Below are positions 22,218-49,593 of a DNA stretch of 64,000 nt, one piece after another. The notes under the pieces are model-generated. The model did no database searches. It saw only the letters and a list, made by a program, of their open reading frames with translations, and had not been told where the DNA came from. A program made the position numbers and the translations under genes. Every line of letters begins with the position of its first letter. Position 1 is the first letter of the stretch. Source of the DNA: Caecitellus pseudoparvulus (lineage: Eukaryota > Protista > Bigyra: Bicosoecida). The stretch lies in the NCBI GenBank assembly GCA_965644315.1, contig CBFFRQ010000040.1:124001-188000 (forward strand). Reading direction: 5' to 3'.

Positions 22218-22320
22218 TGCCGTCGTGAGATTTTCGGGGGGGGGGCGACATGCCTTTGGGGGGTTGCCCTCGAAGGGGTATAGGGGGTGGGGCAAACTCC
22301 TTTTTGTGGGGGTGGGGCAG

Positions 22321-22364
22321 ACACCCACTTTGGGGGGGGGTGGTGCAAACACCCACTTTGGGGG
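22321..22364 (+). repeat. Subterminal direct repeats ACACCCACTTTGGGGG x2
   Basis: Copies at 22321-22336 and 22349-22364, near the left transposon end. Confidence 0.6.
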
Positions 22365-29362: not shown

Positions 29363-29778
29363 AAAAAAAAGGGATGGTGGTGGTTTAGTGTAAAACACCA
29401 CCCCACGGTAGATACATACGTAATGCGTGGCTAAAGCCACTATATTTAATGGTTCATTATATAGTAATTTAATAGTCAATAAAATATATATTATTTAAGG
29501 TATATTTAAAAACAAGAAATAGTAAATTATAGGAAATATAAAAAAGTAATAAGTTAAAACATTATTTCCTATTTCCTTAATTTCTCTTTTTTTATGGATT
29601 TTTAAATATTATTATAATTTTCTTAAAATAGACTTTGAGAAAGAAAATATAAGATATAGGAAAAGTCTCTCTTAATCGCATGTGTTATACTTTTAGTGAA
29701 TGAGTAAGTAAATATCTCTCTTAATTGCGGTGTGTGTCCCCTTCAAGAACAATTTAAACGCAATATTAAAAAATAAAT
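29363..29778 (+). repeat. Left terminal inverted repeat of the virus
   Basis: Reverse complement of 47091-47506; by eye it differs only in two homopolymer lengths. Confidence 0.95.
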
Positions 29779-29797
29779 TATGTGACTATAATAATTA

Positions 29798-30039
29798 TGC
29801 AAAAGAAGAACCTTTCTAAAAAGTATCTAACTATGGATTTATCCTTATTAGCTTTTGATATTGAAGAGCAAAAAGAAAACATACAAAACTTAAAGAAAGA
29901 ACTAAAAGAACTTCAAGCTGAAATGAAAGAAAAATTGCAACTGCTAAGCAATAGAATGAAAAAAGAAAATAAACAAGAATTAAAAGTAAAAGAGAAACTT
30001 TATAAAATTCAAACAGAGGAAACACTGATTGTTGAATAA
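29798..30039 (+). CDS. Small coiled-coil viral protein
   Basis: K/E-rich heptad ORF starting just inside the left TIR. Confidence 0.55.
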
Positions 30040-30063
30040 ATTTTTATCTATGTATAATAATAT

Positions 30064-30861
30064 ATGGATAAAGTAATAAACTATTTTAATGACTTTTTTC
30101 TAGGTAATCCAGCAAATAAACAAACATTGCAAACATCAACAATTACAAAGAAAGATGTTTATCAAGTGCCTATACCATGGGATGCTTACCAATGTGCCGT
30201 AGCGTGTAAATTAGTATATGATAGCCCTTCAACACGTCCATTTATTACAAGTAATTTAGTTTATAATGAAACATTAAGTAATAATAAAATGGCTGTATTT
30301 GTTGATATATCAGAAACACCAAAAGCATTTATTGTATTTAGAGGGACACAAACAGACGTAATTGATTTTATTGATGATTTAAGTATTATTGCAGGAGGAA
30401 GTTTTTCATTAAATTTATTAATTAATACAAAGAGACTAAATAAAATGCTAAATACTTTAAATGAAGTAGGTATTCAAAACATATATTTTACGGGTCATTC
30501 TTTAGGAGGTTTTGAAGCTGTATATGCAAGTAATGAATATGGTATTCCTGCAGTTGTATATAATATTGGTGCATCACCAACACAAGAACTAAGTAAAAGT
30601 ATAAGGGAATTTAAGAATAAAGTTTTAGGCATTCGTAATAGCTATAAAGACATTTTTGATAGTAGCATAATTAAATCGTATATTATGGAAGGTGATTTAA
30701 TAGCTGAAACAAGTAAAATTTTAATTCCAAACACAACAGTTTTAAAACCAAAACCAGCACCAAAAAATTTAATTGAAGCCCATTCAATTGATTTTATTTT
30801 AAAAAGTGTAGCACCAACCAATACAGAATTATATTATAGTAAACCATCAATTGGTTTTTAA
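30064..30861 (+). CDS. Class-3 lipase / alpha-beta hydrolase
   Basis: IVFRGT, FTGHSLGG nucleophile elbow, GDLI, terminal AHSI His. Confidence 0.85.
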   Translation: MDKVINYFNDFFLGNPANKQTLQTSTITKKDVYQVPIPWDAYQCAVACKLVYDSPSTRPFITSNLVYNETLSNNKMAVFVDISETPKAFIVFRGTQTDVIDFIDDLSIIAGGSFSLNLLINTKRLNKMLNTLNEVGIQNIYFTGHSLGGFEAVYASNEYGIPAVVYNIGASPTQELSKSIREFKNKVLGIRNSYKDIFDSSIIKSYIMEGDLIAETSKILIPNTTVLKPKPAPKNLIEAHSIDFILKSVAPTNTELYYSKPSIGF

Positions 30862-30874
30862 GAAAGATTTTTTT

Positions 30875-31186
30875 ATGAAAGTAATATATAATATGAATAA
30901 ACAATATAATTATGAAGATCCATTCAATGGAAAACAACCAACAAGAAAAGAGTATGAAGAGTATATTGATCATTTAAAAGAAGTAAATCAAAGACGTGTG
31001 GAATTAATTAAAAGTTGTAGTGATTATTATTTGGTACAACATTTAGATTTTTCAGAAGATTACTTATCATATGAAGAATTCATAGAATATGAGAAAGAAA
31101 TTGAAAAAGAAAAGACACAAAAGGAAGCTACAAAAATGAAAATGGATAATGTACACAAGGAATTATTAATGGCAACATCAAATTAA
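30875..31186 (+). CDS. Hypothetical viral protein
   Basis: ORF within the co-oriented viral gene block; start uncertain. Confidence 0.5.
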   Translation: MKVIYNMNKQYNYEDPFNGKQPTRKEYEEYIDHLKEVNQRRVELIKSCSDYYLVQHLDFSEDYLSYEEFIEYEKEIEKEKTQKEATKMKMDNVHKELLMATSN

Positions 31187-31218
31187 ATATTTTATAGATT
31201 AATTTTATAATCTGTAAA

Positions 31219-31728
31219 ATGATAATTGAATATTTTTTATTTTTAGTGTATGAAAGAGTAATAGAGTTTATTAATTATATAAAAATGAAATTTATAGTTT
31301 TTCAATGTTCAGAGTCTGAAAAGACTGAAAAAGACTGTACCAAGATTGAAAATAAGTCTGAAATTTTAAAGTCTGAAAATACTGAAGATGATTTTGTTGA
31401 AATAAAAACTAAGGAAAATATTCCAACAGTTCCAAATATAGATACCAAGTATTATTATAAGCCAAAAAGGGAGCTAAAACAACGAAAGCAATTATCCCAA
31501 CGAAAACAAGAACAATTAAGAAATGCACGAAAGAAAGCACAAGAGACTTATAGAAGAAGAAGGGAGGAAAAAGCAAGATTACAAGAAGAGGAGCGAATAA
31601 GAAAGTATGTAAAGATTATTAAACCAGAGATAATAAAGGAGAAAGAACAACCAATAAAAAATAAAACTATAAATGATGATTACATGATAGAGGATCTTTT
31701 AAAACAAATGGAAGAAGAAAATTATTGA
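31219..31728 (+). CDS. Hypothetical basic/coiled-coil viral protein
   Basis: 169-aa ORF with an R/K/E-rich helix. Confidence 0.55.
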   Translation: MIIEYFLFLVYERVIEFINYIKMKFIVFQCSESEKTEKDCTKIENKSEILKSENTEDDFVEIKTKENIPTVPNIDTKYYYKPKRELKQRKQLSQRKQEQLRNARKKAQETYRRRREEKARLQEEERIRKYVKIIKPEIIKEKEQPIKNKTINDDYMIEDLLKQMEEENY

Positions 31729-31762
31729 AAGTATAAATTAATATTTTATTAGTCTATATTAT

Positions 31763-33832
31763 ATGAATCCATTTAATTTGACAGATGAGCAAATTTATAA
31801 TATGCAGGAAGAGTTGAATGAAGAAAGAAATACGCAGTTTGTAAATTTAGGCTTATTGAATTATACAACTGATTTATTAGTACCTCAAGAAGCAGAAGAA
31901 GAGGAAGATATAAATTTAGATGAAGCAATTACAAATGCAGATTTAATACTACATAACAAACAATTTTATAATGAAGGATGGGGAACAACAGATGAATCAT
32001 TTGAAGAAGCATTTTTTAATGAGCAAAAAAGAGAAGAAGAAATACAAAATAAATTATTTAGAAGTTTGGGATTAACACCAGAAACTCTAGAACTAGATGA
32101 AGAACAAAGAGAACTAAAGAATATATTAAATTATATTGATGCATTTGGAAAACGTCATAATCTTTCACAAGCTGAAGTATTAAATTTAAGATCAAAAGCT
32201 ACTGAATCATTTTTAAAGAACAAATTTAATCCTTCATTCATAGCACAACAAAAACCAATAAATCAAATGCAACAAGAAATAAACCAAAAATTCAGTGGTG
32301 CTTCAGACCAGCCACCAGCACAACCACCAACAGAACCACCAGCAGAACCACCAGCAGAACCACAAGCACCAGCACAAGGGGGAGCAGGTGAGAGCAAAGA
32401 AGGAGCGGGAACTGCCCAAATGATAGACACTAGTGGGGGTATTCATACAGTAGATAAACCAACAACAGAAGCACCAGCACCAAGACGACCTGAACCAGTG
32501 GCGGATACAGGGGCGGGGGCAGTAGTTCCAAACCAAGCAGAGCTAAGAGCAAACCGACTTAAATTATTAGAAAGAGTTCAACAAAGAGGAGATGAAGTAA
32601 GAAGAGAAAACAAAGATAAAGAATACCAAGATTTAGCCGATAAGATAGCACGAGAATTTATAGAAGCAATAAAAGGTGTATCTGGTGTTGCAAAAACAAA
32701 TATGATAAATATAATAAACAAATTAGTTGAAAGATCAAGAAATACACTTAATACAACAGGAACAGACAAAGCAATAACAGCCGATGATGTAGATATTATT
32801 ACACAAAGTAGCACATCAAAATCTGCCGAAGTATTTGAAGGAATATTAGAAGGTATACCAGAATATACAAAACTAAACTTAGAAGATAAAGTAATTGTAA
32901 TTTCTAAAATAGATTTTAATAAAATAGAAGAACAAAAACAAAAAGCAAGAGCGGATATTAAGTATGGTACATTACCAGATGCACAAAGAAATGAGGTTTA
33001 TTATTTGTACCTTGGACAATTACTAACTCTTGGGAAAATTTCATTAGATAGTATTTTAAAGCAAACAGAAGAAACTCCAGAGAAACTAGGGCAAAAAATG
33101 TATACTGCTAGTGTTAATGCTAAGAAAACCCCAAAGTACTTATCAGTTTTGTATGATATATTAAACAGGTACTTAGCTGACAATAAAATAACGACTCCAA
33201 CAGGTGGGCATAAGACACAAATGGGTTATTATGGAAAACAAATTTTTGATTTAATTAAAGTTAATGCGGAAAAAGTACCAAGGGATGCAGGCGAGAAGGC
33301 GAATGCATATGCTAAACGAGTAATTGGAATACTAGCTAACCCCGAAAGCGGAATATATACAACAAGAAGAAGACCAGAACCAGCAGATGCACCAGCCCCA
33401 GCAGACGCACCAACCCCAGCAGATGCAGGAGATGAAGTAAGAGAATTAACAGATGCAGAAGATGGACAACTAAATAGATTAATTGATACATTTGAAGTAA
33501 GTAAAATGGGTGGAGCAAATCCAGATGAATTTATTGGACAGGAAATAGATTTATTATTGTCAGGCTCACCAAGTAGAGACATGAAAGCTTTAATAAAATC
33601 AATGGGCATAACAGAAGACAAAATGAAAGACATAATTAAACGCAAAGCATACTTTGTTTCACCTGATACAAGAAAAGAATATGATACTGTTTCACAAGAA
33701 GCAAAAGAAGGAAAAATAGATAATATTGTAAAAAGTTATGCTGGTAGAATAGAAGGAGGGGGTGGAGGACAAGCCCAAGGACGCAGAACACAAGCAAGAA
33801 AGGGGCGAATTTTAAAAGGAAGAGGTCAATAA
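31763..33832 (+). CDS. 689-aa viral protein (acidic N-terminus, Pro/Ala linkers, Arg/Gly-rich C-tail); possible virion core protein
   Basis: Long ORF immediately upstream of the ATPase-MCP-penton cluster. Confidence 0.7.
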   Translation: MNPFNLTDEQIYNMQEELNEERNTQFVNLGLLNYTTDLLVPQEAEEEEDINLDEAITNADLILHNKQFYNEGWGTTDESFEEAFFNEQKREEEIQNKLFRSLGLTPETLELDEEQRELKNILNYIDAFGKRHNLSQAEVLNLRSKATESFLKNKFNPSFIAQQKPINQMQQEINQKFSGASDQPPAQPPTEPPAEPPAEPQAPAQGGAGESKEGAGTAQMIDTSGGIHTVDKPTTEAPAPRRPEPVADTGAGAVVPNQAELRANRLKLLERVQQRGDEVRRENKDKEYQDLADKIAREFIEAIKGVSGVAKTNMINIINKLVERSRNTLNTTGTDKAITADDVDIITQSSTSKSAEVFEGILEGIPEYTKLNLEDKVIVISKIDFNKIEEQKQKARADIKYGTLPDAQRNEVYYLYLGQLLTLGKISLDSILKQTEETPEKLGQKMYTASVNAKKTPKYLSVLYDILNRYLADNKITTPTGGHKTQMGYYGKQIFDLIKVNAEKVPRDAGEKANAYAKRVIGILANPESGIYTTRRRPEPADAPAPADAPTPADAGDEVRELTDAEDGQLNRLIDTFEVSKMGGANPDEFIGQEIDLLLSGSPSRDMKALIKSMGITEDKMKDIIKRKAYFVSPDTRKEYDTVSQEAKEGKIDNIVKSYAGRIEGGGGGQAQGRRTQARKGRILKGRGQ

Positions 33833-33853
33833 AAAAATCTAAATAAATAGTAT

Positions 33854-34579
33854 ATGACAGAATTTAAAGTTTATACATTTGAAGAAGATGACATAACCAA
33901 AGATAAAAAATATAAAAGTTTAATTCATCCAATTATAGGAGAACATCCACGAATGATATTAATAGGGCCCAGTCAAGCAGGAAAAACTCAAATGATACAT
34001 AACATATTATGGAATTGGTGTAAAGATTATTACACGAAATCAGAAGATAGCAGAATTATTGTAATCAGTGGAACAGATACAACAATAAGACATATATCAA
34101 AAATGGCAGACAAACTAAAGCTAGATGAGGAGCAATTATTAATTATGGATTTTTTAGATTTTGAAGAATTAAAGAGTATTTACAAAGGATTAAATCCAAA
34201 AGTTCCACATATTTTTATTTTTGATGATATGGCATATAACCATGAAATGAATACAAATCATAGAACAAATTTTTTATCTGAATTGTTTGCAAGTGGTAGA
34301 CATAAGAACACAGGATGCATAATAGCAACACAAAAGTATCATTTCTTAGGACGTGATGTAAGAATGCTTAATTCAACTTTAGTTTCTATTTATTGGAATT
34401 GCTCAGATGGTGAAATATGGAAAGTATATGATGATAATTTCTCACAATATATAAATACAGATGATTTCAAAGACCTTGTATATGATAATTTGAATGAAAA
34501 GTATAGTTTTATTTTATTGAACAAGAAAACAGGGAAGATTTATAATAACAAAATGAAAGAAATATATAGTAAGTTTTAA
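33854..34579 (+). CDS. A32/FtsK-like genome packaging ATPase
   Basis: Walker A GPSQAGKT, Walker B IFIFDD, GRH and ATQ motifs. Confidence 0.9.
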   Translation: MTEFKVYTFEEDDITKDKKYKSLIHPIIGEHPRMILIGPSQAGKTQMIHNILWNWCKDYYTKSEDSRIIVISGTDTTIRHISKMADKLKLDEEQLLIMDFLDFEELKSIYKGLNPKVPHIFIFDDMAYNHEMNTNHRTNFLSELFASGRHKNTGCIIATQKYHFLGRDVRMLNSTLVSIYWNCSDGEIWKVYDDNFSQYINTDDFKDLVYDNLNEKYSFILLNKKTGKIYNNKMKEIYSKF

Positions 34580-34625
34580 TTAATTCTTTTAGTAAAATAT
34601 TTTTTCTTTTATAAATATATATATA

Positions 34626-35954
34626 ATGGAAAAGAAAGATGAAATTTATCTATTAGGCGGAGTTTTGGATGGTGTAAGAACGAAAGCAAATAAACTTGTT
34701 AATTCACGTTCAAGATTACAATATGATTTACAAGGAACACGAAGCGGATTTGGTAATTTAAATACTAATCTAAATGCTACAATTCAAACAGGCTCACATG
34801 TTCCACAAGCTGATACGCTATCATTAGATGGTGAATTTAAAGTTTCTGGAGGTCAAGCAGGTTCAAATGTAAAACTGTGTGGCGATATTTGCTCAGCTAT
34901 TGAACAAATAAAAGTTTATGTAGGAGGTGCTTTAGTTGTAAATTTAAGCAAACATGCATATTTAGTAGCTATGATGAATAAAAAATTAAATATGAGTGCA
35001 GAAGAACTAGCAATTCATAACGTTAAGGCTCTTCAAAATGTTGTATTTGATGCAACAGGTGGATCAAGTTATAGTTTTTCAATTCCTATGTCTCTTTTTG
35101 GTTTAGATTTAAAGAAATTAATTCCTGTTGGCAACACTCCTATTAACATACAAATTACTCTTCAAAGTAAATTAGATATGTTATTTGTATCTGGTGGAAC
35201 AGCTCCAACAGCACCAATAAAATATGAATTAAATAATGTAAAATTTAGTATGGAAGCATACCAATTAACAAATCTAGGTGCTCAACTGATGTTAAAAAAG
35301 GTTGATCCAACTTCAAATAGTTCAAGTATGAAAGGAATTGTAAATAGATTTTATGGTTATGATTTATCTTATCAAACCCTTCAACAAGCAACCACACATT
35401 CACACCAATTTAATATTAAAAAGCGTGATATTATCAGCACACTTTTATTACCTGCTTATGTTACCATTCCCGCAGGAAGTTCTGATGCTAATGGATTTAA
35501 TACACTTAATACAGACCCAGTCAACGATTTTTTATGGACTACTAGCACAAATTTTAATTTTGTTTCAAATTATCGTATACAATTTACAGGAGAACCCTAT
35601 GCAAATGTAAATGGTGCAAATGGTGAATCTCTATATACTGATCATTTTGAAGGAGTATTAAGAACCGCAAAACCAGAACTACACAGTAAGAGCTATGCTT
35701 CTGAATATTCAGATCAAATGAAAAGAAGTAATAATAAATGTCAAGTCCTTGGCGGTCTGTTCCTAAAAACACCAGAAGACAGCCAACATGCAACAGAAAA
35801 TGGTTTTAATAGTTTAGTTGGTTCATCTGCTTTAGTAGTTGATTTTGATACATCTGCTGCACCTGCAAATTATGCAAATAAAAATTTAGTATGCTTAGTA
35901 AAATTCAAAAGACAATTAGAACTAGCAGGTGGTGTAGCAAAAGTAGTTGAATAA
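34626..35954 (+). CDS. Major capsid protein (double jelly-roll, PLV-type)
   Basis: 442 aa, beta-rich; SAIEQIKVYVGG and FSIPMSLFG segments; lies between ATPase and penton. Confidence 0.75.
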   Translation: MEKKDEIYLLGGVLDGVRTKANKLVNSRSRLQYDLQGTRSGFGNLNTNLNATIQTGSHVPQADTLSLDGEFKVSGGQAGSNVKLCGDICSAIEQIKVYVGGALVVNLSKHAYLVAMMNKKLNMSAEELAIHNVKALQNVVFDATGGSSYSFSIPMSLFGLDLKKLIPVGNTPINIQITLQSKLDMLFVSGGTAPTAPIKYELNNVKFSMEAYQLTNLGAQLMLKKVDPTSNSSSMKGIVNRFYGYDLSYQTLQQATTHSHQFNIKKRDIISTLLLPAYVTIPAGSSDANGFNTLNTDPVNDFLWTTSTNFNFVSNYRIQFTGEPYANVNGANGESLYTDHFEGVLRTAKPELHSKSYASEYSDQMKRSNNKCQVLGGLFLKTPEDSQHATENGFNSLVGSSALVVDFDTSAAPANYANKNLVCLVKFKRQLELAGGVAKVVE

Positions 35955-35966
35955 ATAAATATATAG

Positions 35967-35999
35967 TATTCTTTTATTTTATAAAACAATAAAAGAATA
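35967..35999 (+). terminator. AT-rich hairpin after the MCP gene
   Basis: tattcttttatt...aataaaagaata 12-bp stem, 12 nt after the stop codon. Confidence 0.5.
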
Positions 36000-36035
36000 A
36001 TTGAATTTTTATTTTCTCAATTAAGAATACATAAA

Positions 36036-36878
36036 ATGAGCTTAATTGACATCAATAATACTTTAGAAGTTTATATTAATAGTGCAATTGACAAAAGACC
36101 AAGTGATACATCTTTTGAATGGACAACAGAATTTAATACTACACCATTAGTTTTATCAGGTGGTGATTATATCCACCGTCTTATTGTTCAATCTGCATCC
36201 GTCCCTAATACATTTCCACAATTTAACCCAATTGATAGAGCTACATTTTCTATTGAAATAGAAAATGGAGCAACAACAGAACACACTATAAGCGAAAATT
36301 TAGTTTTTTCATCTACTGAGCAATTTGCAACATATTTACAAACAACAATAAATAATGCTGGTGGTAATGTTTCAGTATCACAAGAACAATCAACATTAAA
36401 ATTAAAAATTGTGAATAATGATACTGATTATGTTAAGTTTTCAACAGTTGGTAATTATGGTAAGTTTTGGAATAAAATAGGTTTTACACAAGAACAGTAT
36501 AACGATGGTCAAGCATTAAAAATTGATCCATCCGATAACATGGAAGGTTTAAATTATCCAAACTTGATTAGTACCAGTAAAGTTTTTATTTGCATGAAAA
36601 ATGGTATTTTAAATAATTCATTTTTTGGTTCAGGATTAAATAGGCTAAAGTATCCAGTACTATTAAGTTTAAATATAGAATCAGGAACAGGTACATATTC
36701 AAGCTATGTATCAGATGATGAAATATTCTTTAATCATGATTTACTAGAAAACAATCAAATTAACCAAATGGATTTTATTTTATTAGATGATGAATATCAA
36801 GAGGTCAAGTTGAAAGGTGGTTCAGTCAAATTATCTTTAATAATTAAGCAATATAGAACAGCCCAAGAACATTATTAA
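36036..36878 (+). CDS. Minor capsid (penton) protein
   Basis: VYINS...F N-terminus, SASVPNTF, C-terminal INQMDFILLDD...VKLKGG.V.LSL pattern typical of PLV/virophage pentons. Confidence 0.7.
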   Translation: MSLIDINNTLEVYINSAIDKRPSDTSFEWTTEFNTTPLVLSGGDYIHRLIVQSASVPNTFPQFNPIDRATFSIEIENGATTEHTISENLVFSSTEQFATYLQTTINNAGGNVSVSQEQSTLKLKIVNNDTDYVKFSTVGNYGKFWNKIGFTQEQYNDGQALKIDPSDNMEGLNYPNLISTSKVFICMKNGILNNSFFGSGLNRLKYPVLLSLNIESGTGTYSSYVSDDEIFFNHDLLENNQINQMDFILLDDEYQEVKLKGGSVKLSLIIKQYRTAQEHY

Positions 36879-36926
36879 ATTGTACACTGTAGTTTATAAA
36901 AATTAATTTTATACACTATATAATAT

Positions 36927-39590: not shown

Positions 39591-39627
39591 ATTTAAATAT
39601 AAAATAAAATTTGTAGTATAAGTATAT

Positions 39628-39912
39628 ATGATTCTAGATATAATACCATCAGCAAGAAAGGATAAAAGATTTACAGCTATATTTAAAGATGGTTCAAAAA
39701 CTTCATTTGGACAAAAGGAAGGTAGCACATTTATTGACCACAAGGACAAAGAGAAAAGAAAGAATTATAGAGCCAGACATGAAAGAGATTTAGAAACTAA
39801 AGACCCAAAAAGAGCAGGATACTTATCATATTATATTTTATGGGGTGATGAGACAAACTTAAAAGATGCAATGAAAGCATATAATAAGCAATTCTTCTTT
39901 AATAAAAAATGA
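39628..39912 (+). CDS. Small conserved PLV/NCLDV protein (DUF5754/Tlr6F-like)
   Basis: S.RKDKRF...F.DG...SFG.....F.DHKD..KR.NY..RH.......AGYLS..ILWG pattern. Confidence 0.6.
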   Translation: MILDIIPSARKDKRFTAIFKDGSKTSFGQKEGSTFIDHKDKEKRKNYRARHERDLETKDPKRAGYLSYYILWGDETNLKDAMKAYNKQFFFNKK

Positions 39913-39958
39913 TTATATTTATGGAAATATAGTTTTTTTCTCTTACTATAATATATTT

Positions 39959-40522
39959 ATGGAAATGGAAAATGCATTAATTTTAGGTGCTGGTTTGGTA
40001 TCAATTGGTGCTAAAACCGCTTATTCATGTTTTGGAAAATCAAAAAAGAAGAAATGGTCTAAAATTAGATTTGGTGCTATTGTTATGAGTTGCATGACTG
40101 GAAAATCTACACTGGCAAACAAACTTAAAGCAGATTCAGGTGTCTATTTAATTGATGTTGGCCAATCTGTCGCTGTTGATGGTGATACAAACGCAGATAT
40201 TAATTATTTAATGAAAGCTAAAGAATATGTAGATAAAGTAAAGAAAGATATGAAGGATTATAAACTAATTTTGATTTGTTCCTCTATTGGTGAAGCAAAA
40301 TATCTCGGTGTTGATGAATCAAACATTGCTGTTCTGACACCTTCAAACTCGCTTTTTAAATCAATATGTGAAGGTCGTAATACTGCAAATGTAGCAGAAA
40401 TGGAACGTAAAAGAATGGAATTAATTAGTGCTTGTAGTGAGGACGTACTAAATATTTTTGATAGTTATGATACTCTTTATTCTGTCATTCGCACCACGTT
40501 CAAATTGCGTAATAAATTCTGA
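39959..40522 (+). CDS. P-loop kinase-like protein with hydrophobic N-terminus
   Basis: IVMSCMTGKSTLA degenerate Walker A followed by YLIDV. Confidence 0.55.
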   Translation: MEMENALILGAGLVSIGAKTAYSCFGKSKKKKWSKIRFGAIVMSCMTGKSTLANKLKADSGVYLIDVGQSVAVDGDTNADINYLMKAKEYVDKVKKDMKDYKLILICSSIGEAKYLGVDESNIAVLTPSNSLFKSICEGRNTANVAEMERKRMELISACSEDVLNIFDSYDTLYSVIRTTFKLRNKF

Positions 40523-40596
40523 AAAGGACTTTCAAAGAACTTTTATTTAAAACAAAATATAAATAATTATATTTTGCTTCTTAAAAAACTATATTA

Positions 40597-41070
40597 TTAT
40601 ATTATCATTGTTATTTTTTTCATTTTAGTCCATTTATCAAAATCTAATTTATCTTGCCTTTCAATTCTCTTTCTTCTAGCTTCTCTATCCCTTCCTTTTC
40701 TCCTATATTTCTTTTTCAATCTTTCATAAATATCTTTCCAATGTTCTAATGTAATTTCCTTTCTTAGTCTGTATGTGTATAGTCTGTTGTACTCTCTCCT
40801 AAAGTCTTTATCATCTTCTTCAGATAATCGCTTAATTCTACATCTTATTAAATTACAATCACTCTTGTACTCATCTATTTTTACGCAATCATGATAGACA
40901 TTAAATAAATGTTGTAAGTTCTCTTGTCTTGTTCTCAAACTCATATCAATTCTATCTTCTAATGGAGAATCTTTTACTTTATAAAGAATGTAATCAAACA
41001 TATTCATACATGTTTCAAAGTCTTTTTTAAATTCTGTCATTGAATAAACAGTTTTTGAAAATTCTGTCAT
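40597..41070 (-). CDS. Hypothetical basic viral protein
   Basis: 157-aa ORF. Confidence 0.5.
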   Translation of the reverse strand: MTEFSKTVYSMTEFKKDFETCMNMFDYILYKVKDSPLEDRIDMSLRTRQENLQHLFNVYHDCVKIDEYKSDCNLIRCRIKRLSEEDDKDFRREYNRLYTYRLRKEITLEHWKDIYERLKKKYRRKGRDREARRKRIERQDKLDFDKWTKMKKITMII

Positions 41071-41090
41071 TTATATATTACTTATATAAT

Positions 41091-41270
41091 ATGATTTCAA
41101 GATCAAAGCAAAGGAGAAAACACAATGGCATCTGGTATTCCATTATGACGAAAGCCATTCAAGAAAAAAGAGAAAAAATCATTGAACAGAATACAAAAGA
41201 TCTCATTGAAACTTTTGGAATAAAAATAATTATTGATGTATTGGATGATCAAAATAAAATGAAAGAATAG
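41091..41270 (+). CDS. Small hypothetical viral protein
   Basis: ATG at 41091 is divergent from the 41070 ATG; a hairpin follows the stop. Confidence 0.35.
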   Translation: MISRSKQRRKHNGIWYSIMTKAIQEKREKIIEQNTKDLIETFGIKIIIDVLDDQNKMKE

Positions 41271-41325
41271 TACTTGAAACAAAATATAAATAATTATGTT
41301 TTGCTTCTTGAAATAATAAATTGAG

Positions 41326-41634
41326 TTATTTTTCTGATTCACCAATAAGTTTTAATCTCTCATTAATTGCATCATTAATTTTTTCAAATCCTGATTTAGT
41401 AAACTTATAAACAAGTGATACTCCAATATCTGGAAAATTTAGTATTACATTATAGCTTGCTGAATCTACCTCTACACAGCTCTTAAAATCATATGCATGA
41501 ACGTTAGTTATAAATAAGGGAGTTGTGAATGTTAGAATTAATTCTTTATCTTCAAATCTGATAGATGTGTTCTGTCTGGGACAAGTCAATAGCTTTCCAT
41601 TTAAAGTACAATATCTCGCATTAACAATTTTCAT
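41326..41634 (-). CDS. Hypothetical viral protein
   Basis: 102 aa; conserved upstream motif at 41660-41673. Confidence 0.6.
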   Translation of the reverse strand: MKIVNARYCTLNGKLLTCPRQNTSIRFEDKELILTFTTPLFITNVHAYDFKSCVEVDSASYNVILNFPDIGVSLVYKFTKSGFEKINDAINERLKLIGESEK

Positions 41635-41675
41635 TTTAGTATATCCTTTAAAACGTATTTTATCCTTAGGTTATT

Positions 41676-41960
41676 TTATTTAATTATTAATTCATCTTCC
41701 GAATCTGATTCATAGTATTCATCATAGTATTCTATGTATTCCGGATAGCTATCTTGAAATGATGTAAATTCATCATGTAAATTATCAATATCTACTTCAT
41801 GGGCTGGATTATCCTCCAATTGCAAGAACAATGTATCCATTTTCTTTTTATACCTTTTGATGTCCTGTATGACATATTTCATTTTTCGTAGTTTCTCTTC
41901 GTCCGTTTCATTGATCATCATTTTCTTAACTTTCTTTATTTCTTGTGTGAATCTATTCAT
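41676..41960 (-). CDS. Hypothetical acidic-tailed viral protein
   Basis: 94 aa; conserved upstream motif at 41979-41992. Confidence 0.6.
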   Translation of the reverse strand: MNRFTQEIKKVKKMMINETDEEKLRKMKYVIQDIKRYKKKMDTLFLQLEDNPAHEVDIDNLHDEFTSFQDSYPEYIEYYDEYYESDSEDELIIK

Positions 41961-42012
41961 TACGTCTTAAAACGCATTTTATCCTTAAGTTATTTTATTA
42001 ATTAATTATATA

Positions 42013-43023
42013 ATGAGCAAAATAAAAGAGTTAATATCTGAACTGGGAATTGATGAGACTTTTACTAAACCACAACCTAAAGAAACTCAGTTTACAAAAG
42101 TTAAAGGGGTAATCTATCCCGAAGAAGATTATAATTTTCAAGCTGATTTATTAGAGCTACCAAAGACCAAAGAAGGATTTAAATATTTATTAGTTGTTGT
42201 TGACTTATGGACTAATGAATTTGATATTGAACCACTAAAAACTAAAAGACCAAATACTGTTTTAGGTGCATTTAAAAAGATGATTAAACGAAAACATATT
42301 AATTTACCAGAAGCAAGCATAAGAACAGATGGAGGAGGAGAATTTAAGGGTGATTTTGCCAAATTTCTATTTGATGAATCCATTCTGAAAAAAACAGCAA
42401 TGAAAGGAAGACATCAGCAAATGGCAAATGTGGAAAGATTAAATAAAACACTTGGAAGACTATTTAATGGATACATGAACAAAAAAGAAGAAGAAACTAA
42501 TAAACCTTATAGAGAATGGACAGATATTTTATCTCAGGTAAGAACTAAATTAAACAAAATAAGAAAAGTTGAACCAAACAAATTTAAATTTGCAAAAATT
42601 AAGATGATCTCTCCAAAATTTAAAATAGGTGATCTTGTATATTATAAGCTGACACCATCTCAGGCCGAAGATTCATTAGGAAATCCCGTTCAAGGAGGAT
42701 TTAGAACAGGAGATAGAAGATTTAGTAAGAAAGCTAGAAAAATTAAACAAATACTGGCATATAAAGGAAATGTTCCAGTACGATATCAATTAAATTATTT
42801 ACCAAATGTATCATTTGCAGAATCAGAACTTAAACTAGCCAGTGGTGAAGAAACATTTGAAGTCAGAGAAATAATAGATGATAGGAGAGGACAATATAAA
42901 GTATGGTGGAAAGGTTTTCCTAAGAAAAATGCAACTTGGGAAAACAAAATAAGAATTAAAAAACAAGTTCCAGATATAGTAAAGGAATATGAAGAAAAAA
43001 AGAAGAATCAATCCAAAAAGTAA
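42013..43023 (+). CDS. Retroviral-type (rve) DDE integrase with C-terminal chromodomain
   Basis: FQADL...KYLLVVVD, IRTDGGGEF, VERLNKTL (D,D,E); FEVREIID....YKVWWKGF....ATWE chromodomain. Confidence 0.93.
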   Translation: MSKIKELISELGIDETFTKPQPKETQFTKVKGVIYPEEDYNFQADLLELPKTKEGFKYLLVVVDLWTNEFDIEPLKTKRPNTVLGAFKKMIKRKHINLPEASIRTDGGGEFKGDFAKFLFDESILKKTAMKGRHQQMANVERLNKTLGRLFNGYMNKKEEETNKPYREWTDILSQVRTKLNKIRKVEPNKFKFAKIKMISPKFKIGDLVYYKLTPSQAEDSLGNPVQGGFRTGDRRFSKKARKIKQILAYKGNVPVRYQLNYLPNVSFAESELKLASGEETFEVREIIDDRRGQYKVWWKGFPKKNATWENKIRIKKQVPDIVKEYEEKKKNQSKK

Positions 43024-44246
43024 ATTGTTTGTGAGCTTTTAATATCTATTGTCTTATTGTGGTACTTATGATCCTGACAAATAAACTTTGTTATTACTTC
43101 ATCATGATTCTTTTTACATATGAAACCATCAATATATATCCTTACTACATCATCAAGAATTGGAGCTATTAAATTTGACATCTTAGCTCTACAAGTGGCA
43201 GGTAGAAAATATCCCATTCTTGCAGTTGTATATAAGAATATACGCTCTCTTTTTACTGTATAATACACACGTTCACCTTTCTTGTTTACATAAGACTTAC
43301 TAAGAATTGGTAAAATATTCTTTTGCTCCTCTTCGGTTTTGCTTTGAATACTTGATAGTTTTCTATAAATTGGCCGATGTTTAATCTTTTGATATCCAAA
43401 CATATTATTTAACATAAACTTAATAAGAGGGTTCTTTGATAGCTTATCATTTGCTTTCATGAGTATATCTTGATACCATCCAAAAATAATATGTGAATCT
43501 ACTAATGTATCATTATCATATATTAAAGCATTTGGTTTACCATCCTGTATAATTTCCCATTTAAGACTTAGACCGACCCAATCACGAAAGAATTTCAGTT
43601 TATTCAATGTAAAATGATCATAATAATTCTTCTTAGAAAAGCCAATAAGAAATTTTGCTCTTGGATCTGATGAAACAACTTTAATATGATAATATCCATA
43701 TTCAAACTTTTCGGGTGTCTCTGTTAATGTTTCAAATCTTCCTCTTTTTACTGGAAACTTAAAGTTTCTTTTTCTACATCCATAAGTCATTGAATAAAAT
43801 TTCTTTTGATCATAAGCATATACTTTACCTTTGTATGGTGTACCTGCTATTAAACCTGAATCATATGATTGATCCATAAATTTATATTCTTCATATGTCA
43901 TATGTTCATAGGATTTCAAATTCTTCTTATCTTTGCGTGTATTGATCAGTAAAGTATTCATTAGTGAGGTATTACATCCATCCTCTTTAAAGAATCTTAG
44001 ATCCAGTCCTTTAAATAACATTCGTTTAGGATTTCGTGTACTTGGTATATTGGATAAGTATTTTTCTAATTCATTTGAATATTCTTGAATCTTTTCATAA
44101 TACTCTATGAGTCCGTTTTCATCTGCATCTATTCCAAAGCTCTTTAACATCTCATACCCATTTGGTTTTTTGTAGCTCTTCTTTACCTTTCCTCCATCAT
44201 ATGAAAAATAAGTTCTTGATACTGAGTCTTTATAATATACTATCAT
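43008..44246 (-). CDS. Short, divergent protein-primed family-B DNA polymerase
   Basis: Motif A YDQKKFYS...KFP, motif B KFMLNNMFG, motif C RIYIDGF; no exonuclease motifs seen. Confidence 0.7.
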   Translation of the reverse strand: MIVYYKDSVSRTYFSYDGGKVKKSYKKPNGYEMLKSFGIDADENGLIEYYEKIQEYSNELEKYLSNIPSTRNPKRMLFKGLDLRFFKEDGCNTSLMNTLLINTRKDKKNLKSYEHMTYEEYKFMDQSYDSGLIAGTPYKGKVYAYDQKKFYSMTYGCRKRNFKFPVKRGRFETLTETPEKFEYGYYHIKVVSSDPRAKFLIGFSKKNYYDHFTLNKLKFFRDWVGLSLKWEIIQDGKPNALIYDNDTLVDSHIIFGWYQDILMKANDKLSKNPLIKFMLNNMFGYQKIKHRPIYRKLSSIQSKTEEEQKNILPILSKSYVNKKGERVYYTVKRERIFLYTTARMGYFLPATCRAKMSNLIAPILDDVVRIYIDGFICKKNHDEVITKFICQDHKYHNKTIDIKSSQTIYFLD

Positions 44247-44289
44247 ATATTATAAAATACTAATCTTATCTTTAAGTCATTTTATTATT

Positions 44290-44634
44290 TTATTCTTCCA
44301 CTAACCATGAAATAGTTAATGATCTTACAGATTGAAATTTTGATTGTACTTTTACTTTACCATTTAAGTACTCATCTAAATTATCCAATGTTTCGTCAAT
44401 TGTTGAACCATACCCTTTAATATTCATAATACCATCTTTACGAAGTCCAAGTACAACAAGTTCATCAACATCATACTTTTTATCTATCTTGGGAACAATA
44501 TGACCATATAGTTCTTTAATGCTATCAAAATTTATTTCTTCTCCATCCTTTGCTTCAATATACATATCATGTTGAGTATGTCCTCCTACCTTCTCTTCAT
44601 TTCTTCTTACAATATACTTATTCATATTTACCAT
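44290..44634 (-). CDS. Hypothetical viral protein between helicase and polymerase
   Basis: 114 aa; upstream motif at 44660-44673. Confidence 0.6.
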   Translation of the reverse strand: MVNMNKYIVRRNEEKVGGHTQHDMYIEAKDGEEINFDSIKELYGHIVPKIDKKYDVDELVVLGLRKDGIMNIKGYGSTIDETLDNLDEYLNGKVKVQSKFQSVRSLTISWLVEE

Positions 44635-44678
44635 ATCTAATATATCGTAAATACGTAATTTATCCTTAGGTCATTTAA

Positions 44679-46382
44679 TTAAAAAATTCCTAAATTATCA
44701 TTTTCTTTAGTTATTAATTTTCCGTTCTTACTTGCTTTTGTTGCTTTCTTTTTGTATTCTTTAATTTCCTTTTCTGTTTTCTTTTTTTTTGCTTTTGCTT
44801 TGACTTCCTTTTCTTTCTTGAATATTTTCTTGTTTTCAGATAGTTTAATTTTTTTTGGTTTTGATTTTTTTGATTCTACTGTTATTGGTTTTGGTTTCTT
44901 CCCTTCTAAAATTGACATAAACTCTTTAAACTTTTCAGGATGTTTTGCATACAAAACTTTAATATAATCCATGTCATCAACTGATACCTCTTCTTCTGGT
45001 GCTTCATCATCTTCTATTTCTGGGTCATACCATCTTTTACTTATAAATATTTTGCGTAATGTTTCAACAGGTACAATAAATTTTCTCTTTGTTGAACCAT
45101 TTACAGATACAGTAGTTTTAATAATACCTATCTTTTTTAAATCTTTGTGTAATCTATGAAGGGTCATTTTAAATTTTGCGTTCGTATTGTATTCATCCAA
45201 TAATTGCTTGCATTCTATATCCATATCAGCATTATTAAATATAAATTCATCTTTGATATACTTGTATAAAGGAGGAAGAGCAGATATAATTTTTTCATCC
45301 CTTGTTCTTGAATTTGGCATAATATCAAAATTAAAATCTTTGTTTTCTTCATAAAGCTTTCTCATATGATTAAAATATGCAGGTATTACCCCCTTACAAT
45401 TCATAGCCTTAATGACACTTTGGAAATACTTAAAATCACCTTTACGATGGTCTGATACATCGGGGCATATATACCGCTCTTTGTTTGATTGACTCAAATT
45501 AATTGATCCTTCAATATTTGTCGTTATAATTATGTTAAATGTATTTGTTTGAGTGTATCCTACACTGTACATATCACGGCAATCAAATTTATCTTCAGTT
45601 ATTAATCCTTTCAGTTTATCTTGTATAAGTAAATTTCCTCTTAGTTCTGGTAGCTCATCAATATTTACTAATACAACCCCTTCTAATGGTTTTGTGTACT
45701 TTGTTATAGTTTCGGTTGAGGATGTTTTAAGCATTCTTTCGCCAAGCACACGATCTAAGAAGTTTAAATATATGCCTTTTCCGGTTCTTTCTTCTGACAA
45801 CATAAAGATTGCTTTTCGCACCTTTACACCAGCAATTGAAAAAGCAAAAAATAAACGTACATATTCAAACATAGCAATATTTCCCCCACATAATACTTCC
45901 TTAATATGATTATCAATAACTTCAATTTCTTCTAAAAAATCTTTCTCTTTTATGTCTTTACATTCACTTAAATCAAAAGGTAAAGGTTTAACCATATTTA
46001 AATATTTTTGAATTAAGGCTTTACCCTTAATATTTCTTGTAATGGATACAATATCATCATCTGTATCTGGAAATATACCATATTGTACATTATTGGAACA
46101 ATCACAAAATTCAGAACTTACCATGTAATCAAACAAATTGAATTTGGTTTGTCTATTTGATTTTAAATTGTTCTCTTCAATATAATCTTGATTGGTTAAA
46201 TCTTTTGGAATATATTGTCTCAAGTCTTTTTGCTTGAAGTTATCATATTTCCCAGTTTGTACATTCTTAAAAAAATAACTATCTGTTGTCTTAAAAAAGT
46301 ATTTTTGCACATACTCTTTGACATCTTCTATTTTGTTTTCATTAAGTAAATTCTTAATTGTCATTACACTGAATACGACCAT
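44679..46382 (-). CDS. D5-like superfamily-3 helicase
   Basis: Walker A-like SEERTGKG, Walker B LVNIDE, KLKGLIT, motif C FNIIITTN; Lys-rich C-tail. Confidence 0.85.
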   Translation of the reverse strand: MVVFSVMTIKNLLNENKIEDVKEYVQKYFFKTTDSYFFKNVQTGKYDNFKQKDLRQYIPKDLTNQDYIEENNLKSNRQTKFNLFDYMVSSEFCDCSNNVQYGIFPDTDDDIVSITRNIKGKALIQKYLNMVKPLPFDLSECKDIKEKDFLEEIEVIDNHIKEVLCGGNIAMFEYVRLFFAFSIAGVKVRKAIFMLSEERTGKGIYLNFLDRVLGERMLKTSSTETITKYTKPLEGVVLVNIDELPELRGNLLIQDKLKGLITEDKFDCRDMYSVGYTQTNTFNIIITTNIEGSINLSQSNKERYICPDVSDHRKGDFKYFQSVIKAMNCKGVIPAYFNHMRKLYEENKDFNFDIMPNSRTRDEKIISALPPLYKYIKDEFIFNNADMDIECKQLLDEYNTNAKFKMTLHRLHKDLKKIGIIKTTVSVNGSTKRKFIVPVETLRKIFISKRWYDPEIEDDEAPEEEVSVDDMDYIKVLYAKHPEKFKEFMSILEGKKPKPITVESKKSKPKKIKLSENKKIFKKEKEVKAKAKKKKTEKEIKEYKKKATKASKNGKLITKENDNLGIF

Positions 46383-46514
46383 TTGCTATTATAATTACAA
46401 TACGAAATTTATCTTTAAGTAATTTTTTTATTTTTTAAATTCTCCTCATAATTATTATGAAGATAATTCTATAAAACTCAAAGGGGGAAAACACTAAACC
46501 CCTATACTATACTC

Positions 46515-47081
46515 TTATACTTTATTTTTTAGTATTGCGTTCATGTATCTACTACGTGAATTTTTAGTTCCACTTTTCATATGTCTACTAATATACTCAT
46601 GTATAATGAACCATAACCAATTAAATTGATCATCAGTTAAGCAATTATATCCATAAAAATGCTTTTTCTTTTCTAACTTAAACGCTACAAATGAAAAATT
46701 GTCTTTACTCACACAATGTTCACCATATGTTGTATTAAATTCATTCCTTTCATCATATAAATTAATATTTTCACTTTGTTGAAAATAATCATTTAGTAAA
46801 TCTGAAGATAAAACTTTTCTTAAATTGTAATAAAGGTCTATATTTAACTTAATATGATTTAAATATTCTTCATTACTTTCTTTTTCATGAGTAAAATATA
46901 ACATTATGTGTATATAAAAATCTTCATTTTTTAGGTCTTCTACATCTTGAATTTCAATAATAAAATTCCTTACAAAAGATTTACTACTACTAAATGTTAG
47001 TTCCTTTTTATAGTATGATTTTCTATTTTTCATAGAAATTTTCGGTTTCATACTCATATATATTACTAATACATAATTCAC
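46515..47081 (-). CDS. Hypothetical viral protein
   Basis: 188-aa ORF starting at the inner edge of the right TIR. Confidence 0.55.
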   Translation of the reverse strand: MNYVLVIYMSMKPKISMKNRKSYYKKELTFSSSKSFVRNFIIEIQDVEDLKNEDFYIHIMLYFTHEKESNEEYLNHIKLNIDLYYNLRKVLSSDLLNDYFQQSENINLYDERNEFNTTYGEHCVSKDNFSFVAFKLEKKKHFYGYNCLTDDQFNWLWFIIHEYISRHMKSGTKNSRSRYMNAILKNKV

Positions 47082-47090
47082 TTTTATGTT

Positions 47091-47506
47091 ATTTATTTTT
47101 TAATATTGCGTTTAAATTGTTCTTGAAGGGGACACACACCGCAATTAAGAGAGATATTTACTTACTCATTCACTAAAAGTATAACACATGCGATTAAGAG
47201 AGACTTTTCCTATATCTTATATTTTCTTTCTCAAAGTCTATTTTAAGAAAATTATAATAATATTTAAAAATCCATAAAAAAAAGAGAAATTAAGGAAATA
47301 GGAAATAATGTTTTAACTTATTACTTTTTTATATTTCCTATAATTTACTATTTCTTGTTTTTAAATATACCTTAAATAATATATATTTTATTGACTATTA
47401 AATTACTATATAATGAACCATTAAATATAGTGGCTTTAGCCACGCATTACGTATGTATCTACCGTGGGGTGGTGTTTTACACTAAACCACCACCATCCCT
47501 TTTTTT
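47091..47506 (-). repeat. Right terminal inverted repeat of the virus
   Basis: Reverse complement of 29363-29778. Confidence 0.95.
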
Positions 47507-48034
47507 CGGGTGGGGCATTCGGGCAGGTTGTACAGGGTGCAACTAAAGCCTGACGACGTCGTGGATGGACAGGAAGCGGGACACCGCCCCCCCCTCACGC
47601 TCTGCACAGGCGTGAGGCTGCGGTACCCCTCTGGCAACACCAACTGGCTGCCATTGCCGGGGCCAGCCGACGTCATGTGCATCATCCACTGGGACGGCAA
47701 GCGGTTCATGGAGCGGACACTGGTGGACGTAGCCGTGGCCCTGGCGCCGCTGAGGGACGATGCACGCAGTTACCTGCCCGATGAGACCCTCCTCTTGTGT
47801 CGTCACCTGAAACTGGGCCCTTCTGAGGTGCAGGGGTGGGCACGGGTAAACCACTCGCCGGAGGACGAGGCGCAACCGTGGGTGCTCGTGACGGGGGGTG
47901 TGGTAGCTGGCCCGGCCGTTGTGCACGAAGCGCCTTGGATCGCGAAGGGCAAGCCAGGGGAAGCTTCTTACCGCTTCCACTGGGCGCTGCAGGGCCCCGT
48001 CGGCAAGCAGCGCAGCGCCAGCGAGGACACGTGA
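47507..48034 (+). pseudogene. Plavaka-type transposase, 3' part
   Basis: In frame with the 5' part once the virus and one CGGGT are removed (...WLRERR-VGHSGRLYRV...). Confidence 0.8.
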
Positions 48035-48612
48035 GACGGCTTCGCCACTCAGCCCAAGGCAGCCCAAGACAGCCCGTCAAGGGGGGGGGCTGCATCGGAC
48101 AAATGAATCGTGCATGGCGCTTAAAATGCAATGCAAAGGCGGTAAATCGCCTTCATACGCGCCAGCGCTGCGGTGCAAGGGAGTTGGCGCAGGCAGTTTG
48201 CCGCCCGGCTGTGGAGGCGGAAATTGGCGCCCAAAATGGCCCACTTTGCGGCGTTCTCCTGCGCTATGCAAGGCGAACCATCACGCGTGAGTGCAATAAT
48301 CTGAATCTAAGCATGAAACTTAGCCCCCTCTGTGACTTTCGCCAGAATGACCAGAAAATTTGATCAGTCTGCCTCCCTCGGCCCCCGACCCTGCCCTCCG
48401 TCGCCACCACGCCAATCCACCCCTTCCCATTGCGCGGCCCGCCGCGGCTCCCGCAGCGTGAAACGAGTTTGACACAATGTACACATGAAATAGTGTCATT
48501 TTGACTTTTTCCAACTTCTGACGCGCCCGGGAAGGTGTGCCCACCCCCCCCGCACACGGGAACGAAGTGGTGTTGGAGGGGTGTACGGGGGGGACAGAAA
48601 ATCTCTTGACTG

Positions 48613-49593
48613 TGTGAGGCTGGTGAGGCTGTCGAACACGCCTGGCTGCAGGCTGGTAAGAGCAGTTGCGCTCAACGTCAGACTTCGAAGACTGGTCAGG
48701 CTGTCAAAGACTCCTGCCGGCAAGCTGGCCAGCACAGCATTGTTGCTCAGGTCCAGGAATGTGAGGCTGGTGAGGCTGTCAAAGACCCCAGGCGGCAAGC
48801 TGGTCAGCGCAGCATTGTTACTCAGGTCCAGGCCTGAGAGGCTGGCGAGGCTGTCAAAGAAGCCAAGTGGCAGGCTGCTCAGGCGGTTGCTGCTCAGGTA
48901 CAGGTGTGCGAGGCTGGTGAGGTGGTCAAAGAAGCCAAGTGGCAGGCTGCTCAGGCGGTTGCTGCTCAATTCAAGGTCTGTGAGGCTGGTGAGGCTGTCA
49001 AACACACCCGACGATAGGCCGATCAGAGCATCATTGCTGCTCAGGTTCAAGTGTGTGAGGCTGTAGAGGCTGTCAAACACGCCCGGCGGCAGGCTGGTCA
49101 GGTTGTTGCTTCCCAGGCTTAGGTCTGTGAGGCCGGAAAGTCTGTCAAACACGCCCACAGGCAGGCTTGCCAGGGCATCATTGCTGGTCAGATCCAGATC
49201 TGTTAGACTAAGGAGGCTGTCAAACACGCCATCAGGCAGGCTTGCCAGGGCCTTGTTGTTCTTCAGATCCAGTGTCAATAGGCTGTCGAGACCTCCAAAC
49301 ACGTTCGGCGGAAGGCTGGTCAGAGCGTTGTTGTCGTAAATCCCAAGGTATGCGAGGCTTGTAAGACTAACGAATGCACTCGCGTCGATGCCGGTAATGC
49401 TACTGAATGATACAGTCAGGCTGGCACCTGTGCACGAATTGCAATCAACAAGCACGTCACCGACAACAGTACAGCAAGCAGGAACTCCACCCGCCACCCT
49501 ACGTAAGATAGACGACATGCAAGCAAGCCACAGCCACCCAAACCAACCCGTCCACCACTTCCTGCAACCCCATTTTGACCTGTGCACCACCAT
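48613..49593 (-). pseudogene. 5' part of the interrupted LRR receptor-like gene (signal peptide, LRRNT-like cap, ~10 LRRs)
   Basis: Hydrophobic WFGWLWLAC leader, VPACCTVVGDVLVDC cap, same LRR consensus as 19540-22217. Confidence 0.85.

Follow-up and report, generated by a model that had tools for sequence, protein, structure and literature searches.

An integrated Polinton-like virus of Caecitellus pseudoparvulus with a compact polymerase and no recognised maturation protease

A stretch of 64,000 nucleotides from the bicosoecid Caecitellus pseudoparvulus (contig CBFFRQ010000040.1, positions 124,001 to 188,000; hereafter the window) contained an element at 29363–47506 that is, with good probability, an intact, integrated Polinton-like virus (PLV) with a double jelly-roll major capsid protein (MCP) of 442 aa and no maturation protease. 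Its own rve integrase probably inserted it in the recent past, and its copying is likely to proceed by protein priming, with a minimal, mavirus-like polymerase acting alongside a separate helicase. A first-pass annotation, made from the DNA letters, had proposed an intact endogenous virus of PLV type, and the exact ends, target site duplication (TSD), empty form and 19 open reading frames (ORFs) described below supported this.

The boundaries were exact and gave a length of 18,144 bp. G-C content was 0.285 within the element, while surrounding host DNA had values of 0.56–0.71 in 1-kb windows; G-C at third codon positions was 0.11–0.32, and base composition was unameliorated. Both ends abutted a 5-bp TSD, CGGGT (29358–29362 and 47507–47511, forward strand), and carried terminal inverted repeats (TIRs) of ~416 bp (29363–29778, forward; 47091–47506, reverse, identified by alignment to the left copy). 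This alignment occupied 416 columns with one 1-nt gap, within a T run, while the terminal A run was 8 nt long at the left end and 7 nt at the right; the TIRs differed only in these two homopolymer lengths which, together with the unameliorated composition, points to a recent insertion. Polintons and retroviral integrases are associated with AG or TG ends, and the element terminates in A runs instead. Contigs from all four sequencing runs examined (two of one organism, possibly the source itself, one of a second organism and one marine metagenome) contained an empty form, i.e., a joint of 29357 to 47507 with five shared letters, which confirmed both the TSD and the element length. A caution here is that the host transposon may have paralogues, and the empty form could represent these instead of the same locus. 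All 19 ORFs of at least 80 aa beginning with ATG were open, covering 89.6% of the element and leaving a largest internal gap of 255 bp; hence, the near-identical TIRs and unbroken frames that had been noted before were confirmed, and from these reactivation competence may be inferred.

The insertion interrupted a host ORF on the forward strand (26511–29362 and 47512/47513–48034) encoding a C2H2 zinc-finger, weakly Plavaka-like transposase (E = 0.0048, under the cut-off). Its frame resumed 3' of the element for 173 codons, giving ~1,120 codons for both sides together. In run X1, the contig depth of this ORF exceeded that of the element, which hints at a multi-copy transposon. The putative agent of insertion was an rve integrase of 336 aa (42013–43023, forward strand) with D45, D106 and E141 and a C-terminal chromodomain; the Pfam rve match fell under its cut-off of 32.6 (E = 3.7e-7, 30.8 bits) and the Chromo match exceeded its own (30.8). 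As a DDE enzyme, it would have inserted the linear genome, bounded by its TIRs, into the host transposase gene at positions staggered by 5 bp.

The MCP gene was located at 34626–35954 on the forward strand, and its structural model (pLDDT 80.8) formed a double jelly-roll spanning residues 25–441, leaving no C-terminal tail for cleavage. Structural comparison placed the model closest to the capsid of PBCV-1 (Z = 28.8, rmsd 3.2, 352 residues aligned), followed by faustovirus (Z = 26.6), while Z was 18–19 for virophages (Sputnik 18.8, mavirus 18.3). When the model was searched against BFVD, the top two matches were unnamed proteins of 449 and 413 aa, and virophage MCPs were encountered from rank 23 down. 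By this structural ranking, the modelled MCP is not of virophage type, as the first-pass annotation had supposed, and is nearer to the capsids of nucleocytoplasmic large DNA viruses (NCLDV); models of PLV and Polinton MCPs are reported to be similar to NCLDV capsids, those of Gosseviruses to Sputnik (PMC10120064). A profile search of PDB by sequence produced no significant match. At E ≤ 0.001, a search of 1.84 billion sequences recovered 16 representatives of the MCP family, mostly 20–27% identical and none with a name, and two close homologues showed 57–58% identity. In a phylogeny of 20 MCPs, all unnamed and hence silent on named groups (P0020 was partial; P0027 and P0028 were excluded), the window sequence belonged to a clade of four with 100/100 support.

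The remaining virion-side genes were evaluated partly through a metagenomic relative, L002 (~18 kb, G-C 0.30), which shares the gene set but carries the capsid module in inverted orientation; comparisons covered 13,962 of its 17,988 bp, a portion that holds no host flank and lies inside its ends. Upstream of the MCP gene was an A32-like packaging ATPase of 241 aa (33854–34579, forward strand; Pox_A32, 26 bits, cut-off 22.8), and Pox_A32 was above the cut-off for the L002 ATPase also. A gene for a phage-like fibre of 887 aa with internal repeats (36927–39590, forward strand) matched PHROG tail fibres (E = 1.6e-11), so that both names proposed initially were upheld. The penton and lipase fared less evenly. 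ORF280 (280 aa; 36036–36878, forward strand), without a family match in Pfam or PHROGs, is probably a penton (minor capsid protein) given its position and the 32% identity of its positional orthologue, the post-MCP gene of L002. The lipase-like alpha/beta hydrolase of 265 aa (30064–30861, forward strand) contained GHSLG and had an orthologue of 32% identity in L002, but its Pfam match (Lipase_3) was weak. If these assignments hold, the ATPase would load DNA into the capsid, whose MCP lacks a C-terminal extension requiring cleavage, while the penton, fibre and lipase would serve attachment and entry.

In searches of Pfam and PHROGs at E ≤ 0.1, none of the 19 ORFs matched a peptidase family, and the CE-clan pattern H-D/E/N-Q-C was found in none of 49 frames of at least 60 aa; similarly, no protease was recognised by eye among 23 ORFs of L002. 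With a coverage of 89.6% and no internal gap beyond 255 bp, the element had no room for one. The case that the element encodes no maturation protease is strong, if not final, and a very divergent enzyme is unlikely; the absence of an adenain-like protease, remarked upon at first reading, was thus sustained. Aquintoviricetes PLVs typically lack a protease (PMC12220804), and only Gosseviruses have it among their core genes (10.64898/2026.06.19.733378); another protease-less PLV has a different polymerase fusion (PMC12721341). In virophages, the gene is core (PMC8547959).

The gene at 43008–44246 (reverse strand) encoded a short pPolB-type DNA polymerase of 412 aa, recognised through its palm motifs (YDSG, YDQKKFYS, KFMLNNMFG and RIYIDG); these were nearer to canonical form in a homologue, P0006 (YDINEFYG, KLLMNSIYG and RVHTDG). 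All four homologues found were 404–445 aa in length, although the search admitted 226–721 aa, and began with the same start methionine; brevity was therefore considered to be inherited, rather than the result of damage. The palm motifs began at residue 128, and the part upstream had neither a conserved Cys-His pair nor a D-x-E motif, its sole cysteine (C91) not being conserved. Judged by sequence, terminal protein (TP), active vOTU and active exonuclease domains all appear to be absent from the enzyme; mavirus pPolB consists of TP-vOTU-PALM and an exonuclease remnant (PMC11071308). A resemblance of residues 1–92 to ISG20 exonuclease was rejected, having a Z of only 2.8.

A Foldseek search with a low-confidence model returned mavirus pPolB (617 aa) as the best match (E = 3.7e-7), and 11% of the sequences in the Atlas cluster for the polymerase carried DNA_pol_B_2 (at 0.95). 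There was no Pfam match, and a sequence search of PDB returned nothing significant. Several observations count against the assignment. Motif C was YIDG rather than DTD; the model was poor (pLDDT 52.5, pTM 0.36) and its TM-score with mavirus was just 0.18; Foldseek found no match in PDB and VIA none at Z ≥ 5; and while motifs A and B were in register in a profile comparison with PRD1 polymerase, E was 0.18. The accompanying D5-like superfamily 3 (SF3) helicase of 567 aa (44679–46382, reverse strand) was clearer, matching D5-like profiles, DUF5906 and phrog_1156 (E = 3.5e-20), with Walker A/B and motif C present. In a phage collection, the integrase had no match and the helicase a single, weak match to a primase. 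The mavirus-like replication set named in the first-pass annotation was borne out to the extent that the integrase has its chromodomain, the helicase is of SF3 type and the best structural match of the polymerase is the mavirus enzyme.

Beside the polymerase lay ORF114 (44290–44634, reverse strand), a candidate stand-alone TP, for which the odds seem close to even, or slightly below. It adjoined pPolB both in the window and in L002, where its homologue was 76–77% identical, and in both cases the two genes occupied separate frames with their own copies of an upstream motif (dN/dS was 0.135 for ORF114 and 0.177 for pPolB). Expression by readthrough was ruled out, as the genes occupy different frames and their spacers of 43 and 46 nt contain a motif copy. 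Sequence features suggested a pair of amphipathic helices as well as probable strands, the last of them preceded by a Gly/Ser loop; these features and the size of ORF114 agree in part with the PRD1-like TP domain, which has a four-stranded sheet and two helices (LF/PAD fold), with the linking Ser/Tyr situated between helix 2 and the last strand, near Gly/Pro (PMC11071308). The identification is weakened by crude periodicity, which supported both helices but only some of the strands, by the absence of any Pfam, PHROG or PDB match, and by a non-significant comparison with PRD1 TP (hhalign, E = 0.22), although this method had low power here, given that the polymerase pair itself reached only E = 0.18.

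A competing explanation accepts the same virus but not ORF114 as its primer, the polymerase either being primed instead by a terminal hairpin or by a helicase-associated or helper-virus primase, or being itself a non-essential accessory enzyme. This is a tenable alternative, if somewhat short of even odds. ORF114 was identified by no family, PDB or PRD1 TP comparison, motif C of the polymerase is altered, and stable hairpins were present just inside the element ends: following the A run, each otherwise AT-rich TIR contained two G-C-rich hairpins (29376–29403 and 29428–29441 at left), with a folding z of -3.24 that was equalled by one in 200 shuffles. Hairpin priming has been proposed for some Halocafeteria elements, but the same source ties terminal palindromes mainly to elements without pPolB (10.64898/2026.07.28.741278). 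Furthermore, ORF114 remained beside pPolB under purifying selection while the neighbouring helicase was swapped; ORF114 and pPolB together amount to 526 aa, which is close to the 617 aa of mavirus pPolB minus one domain; and the segment of ORF114 that connects the last predicted helix to the last strand, which is the place of the linking residue (PMC11071308), contains a Gly and the conserved Ser98/Ser102.

If priming is by protein, as preferred here, the 412-aa polymerase would start at the terminal A runs after release of the genome, most likely on the ORF114 product, and the SF3 helicase would compensate for loss of the exonuclease region, a substitution also suggested in the case of mavirus. 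A separately encoded primer would make vOTU cleavage unnecessary and, in combination with a short polymerase, would mean that the virus needs no protease. Such a system would be a minimal pair of proteins (114 and 412 aa), small enough for work in vitro, and would lack the vOTU step of the published scenario for pPolB evolution. No case of a vOTU-less pPolB with a separate TP was found in the available literature (PMC11071308, PMC12721341), although supplements on bioRxiv, which lay outside the search, may hold one.

Comparison with L002 showed that sequence identity differed markedly between the two sides of the element. On the replication side, identity was 85% for the integrase, 76–77% for ORF114, 72% for pPolB and 53–58% for ORF94, ORF102 and ORF157 (40597–41960, reverse strand), whereas on the virion side it was 39% for the ATPase, 32% for both penton and lipase and 25% for the MCP. 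The DNA sequences aligned with 77% identity over 41386–44796 and again over 46390–46531. The helicases between these homologous flanks could not be aligned (the best match, E = 14, concerned the last 20 residues). Pairwise dN/dS was 0.12–0.31 for five genes, and ORF102 was saturated. These patterns would reflect either recent exchange of the replication block between viruses or much slower change within it, in addition to helicase replacement; transfer of the replication/integration block between viruses with distant capsids appears to be the best explanation. Reassortment of replication and capsid modules is frequent (10.64898/2026.10.13.758929), and non-homologous helicase replacement has been described in the endogenous mavirus-like elements (EMALEs) of Cafeteria burkhardae (PMC8547959). 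The pair offers a clean natural case of module exchange, with a helicase swapped between homologous flanks and a replication block common to viruses with 25%-identical capsids.

The same block was marked by a putative promoter motif, ACYTAARGATA, on the reverse strand. All five copies in the window (at 41661, 41980, 44267, 44661 and 46410, spanning 41661–46420) began 30–38 nt 5' of minus-strand replication-side genes, namely ORF102, ORF94, pPolB, ORF114 and the helicase. L002 contained six copies of a widened motif, five upstream of the corresponding genes and one inside the ATPase, when shuffled sequences contained 0.2–0.3 (maximum two); in its unwidened form there were three upstream copies and one coding copy. 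Because the motif was derived from the window and then broadened in the light of L002, these counts are not independent. The starts of ORF94 and the integrase (41960–42013) were arranged head to head, 52 bp apart, around a motif copy with the palindromic core CTTAAG that is possibly bidirectional.

Through this shared motif, the replication-side genes would be activated jointly, with a co-infecting giant virus as the probable trigger, as in mavirus, Gezel-14T and the Tetraselmis PLVs; dependence on a helper would follow by analogy with other PLVs (10.1101/2025.10.09.676808). If so, ACYTAARGATA provides a specific handle for seeking the helper. This part of the reading meets with contrary evidence, in that the TCTA motif of mavirus, associated with late genes of Cafeteria roenbergensis virus, showed no enrichment (present in 3 of 19 upstream regions against 1.54 expected, p = 0.2), nor did the W5TGW5 motif used for Gezel-14T (PMC11502894), which occurred in 4 of 19 regions with 5.7 expected, and there is therefore no direct link to a giant virus. 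AGTA, ACTA and AAAATTGA likewise were not enriched in upstream regions. The pattern [ACT][CG]TA[TA] was found in 12 of 19 (p = 0.004), being one of seven patterns tried post hoc. The want of TCTA or W5TGW5 enrichment would suit an autonomous PLV that replicates in the nucleus like TsV-N1, without parasitism of a giant virus and with early and late classes read by the host polymerase; so would the restriction of the motif to replication-side genes, unlike the single late motif of mavirus, and the possession of its own fibre and lipase. However, the element was intronless and AT-rich, and its genes were separated by very short spacers, likewise AT-rich; TCTA is also missing from EMALEs of other types, which have motifs of their own (PMC8547959), and the majority of PLVs tested to date have proved dependent on giant viruses (10.64898/2026.06.19.733378, 10.64898/2026.10.13.758929, 10.1101/2025.10.09.676808). 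Autonomy is accordingly considered unlikely.

Other possible signals included a 52-nt sequence present as two 87%-identical copies (40544–40595 and 41271–41322), adjoining the 3' ends of ORF157 and ORF102 (and of ORF187); a 12-bp hairpin is formed by the first copy, and a transcript-end signal is possible. Long 3' hairpins numbered four in the element, 0–1 in 10 shuffles and zero in L002.

With respect to classification, the element displayed a non-virophage double jelly-roll MCP, an A32-like ATPase, a protease-free module and a length within 15–30 kb with TIRs, all of which are features of PLVs in an operational, Aquintoviricetes-like sense. Of the features of Virophaviricetes, an rve integrase, pPolB and separate SF3 helicase were present, while a virophage MCP and maturation cysteine protease were not; similarly, pPolB and rve integrase are shared with Polintoviricetes, but an adenain-like protease and the TP-vOTU-EXO-PALM layout were lacking. 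By the features tested, the element is of PLV type and neither a virophage nor a Polinton. Like mavirus and the low-GC EMALEs (PMC8547959, PMC11071308), it combines low G-C content and a TSD of 5–6 bp with an rve integrase, an exonuclease-less pPolB and a separate SF3 helicase subject to non-homologous replacement; it differs in that those have a virophage MCP and protease, and a pPolB of 617 aa rather than 412 aa, while here the TP-vOTU front is missing and TCTA is unenriched. A divergent mavirus-type virophage that has lost its protease would account for the integrase with chromodomain, a pPolB nearest to mavirus, the stand-alone SF3 helicase, lipase and low G-C, and the 5-bp TSD is as in mavirus (PMC8547959). 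This is very improbable, given an MCP of 442 aa that is some 10 Z units nearer to PBCV-1 than to mavirus or Sputnik, with virophage MCPs first at BFVD rank 23, the presence of Tlr6F and a phage-like fibre, which are PLV traits (PMC12220804), and the core status of the protease in virophages (PMC8547959). An assembly chimera or contaminant fused to host DNA, to which the sharp step in G-C and the absence of an occupied junction among 32 of ~2,600 contig pieces listed might be attributed, is scarcely credible beside an exact 5-bp duplication, an empty form in four of four runs and a host frame that continues past the site.

Among PLVs, Aquintoviricetes such as Gezel-14T, TsV-N1 and Tetraselmis Tsv-S2/S3 are alike in having an MCP-mCP-A32 ATPase module (the mCP here being the probable penton), fibre, Tlr6F and no protease within 15–25 kb, but no member of the MCP family of 16 representatives (E ≤ 0.001) described here was named. 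The endogenous PLVs of Halocafeteria seosinensis (10.64898/2026.07.28.741278), as described, are also low in G-C, TIR-bounded, integrated and protease-less, share RVE and pPolB clusters with virophages, often occupy host transposon regions and have a stand-alone MCP cluster. They differ, in a comparison made by description only, in averaging 23.6 kb and 34% G-C within a host of 47% (56–71% here), and the available account mentions no stand-alone TP. Consequently, the combination of PLV capsid, rve integrase and pPolB without a protease, regarded as unusual by the first-pass annotation, had already been described; less ordinary are the small, unnamed MCP family, the minimal pPolB beside a gene that is a candidate for its primer, and a motif specific to one module. 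If ORF114 is a TP, the adenovirids and a coral polinton (PMC11071308) would be similar in encoding TP apart from the polymerase; however, their pPolB retains a vOTU (dead or active) and exonuclease, and adenoviruses keep adenain, whereas this element has room for neither domain and no protease. An undescribed lineage, as first suggested, is plausible. A fuller scenario, in which the element is the first of an unnamed, protease-free PLV lineage with TP split off as a 114-aa gene, the polymerase cut to a 412-aa core, no capsid maturation cut, and a TP-pPolB-integrase block that moves with its own promoter motif between capsid modules, is offered tentatively.

Near-identical DNA occurred in 12 listed runs from seven studies, marine metagenomes included, four of which contained at least half of the words, and run contigs displayed several variants of the element. 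The fibre was the most variable part among runs, having loose ends or joints at 37391 and 37755–38268 and being nearly uncovered in run X5. Runs X1 and X5 contained a second, more diverged element (42264–46954); at 85% identity, its contig aligned with the integrase, the motif copies and ORF180, whereas pPolB and the helicase went unmatched. Gene loss was not inferred from joints that skip these genes, as diverged copies may lie between. Scans of IMG/VR, which rest on short exact peptides and give no proof of absence, detected no relative with the MCP, MCP sub-alignment, pPolB alignment, P0006, ATPase, ATPase alignment, integrase alignment or helicase as query. A GTDB scan gave no relative and a JGI scan with the MCP alignment gave none, while a JGI scan with P0004 identified two loci.

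Several smaller genes completed the element. A Tlr6F-family protein of 94 aa (39628–39912, forward strand; DUF5754, 56.7 bits), overlooked at first reading, belongs to PF19058, which carries the name Tlr6f in PMC12220804. Also on the forward strand were ORF80 (29797–30039), a charged protein with weak family matches only; ORF103 and ORF169 (30875–31728), with similarly sized genes at the equivalent position of L002 (ORF169 against L002 ORF197, E = 0.004); and ORF689 (31763–33832), a low-complexity protein without cysteine that precedes the ATPase, as does ORF488 in L002, and is possibly virion-internal. ORF187 (39959–40522, forward strand; weak AAA_24) was hydrophobic at its N-terminus and contained CMTGKST, a P-loop-like motif that a relative in run X7 retains; ORF187 was absent from the examined part of L002. 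ORF180 (46515–47057, reverse strand) weakly resembled L002 ORF126. The flanking DNA carried eukaryotic-looking genes, including leucine-rich repeat (LRR), ankyrin, carboxylesterase and desaturase genes, and host LRR genes with long arrays of 72/75-nt repeats flanked the insertion on both sides (16650–22448 and 48499–49884).

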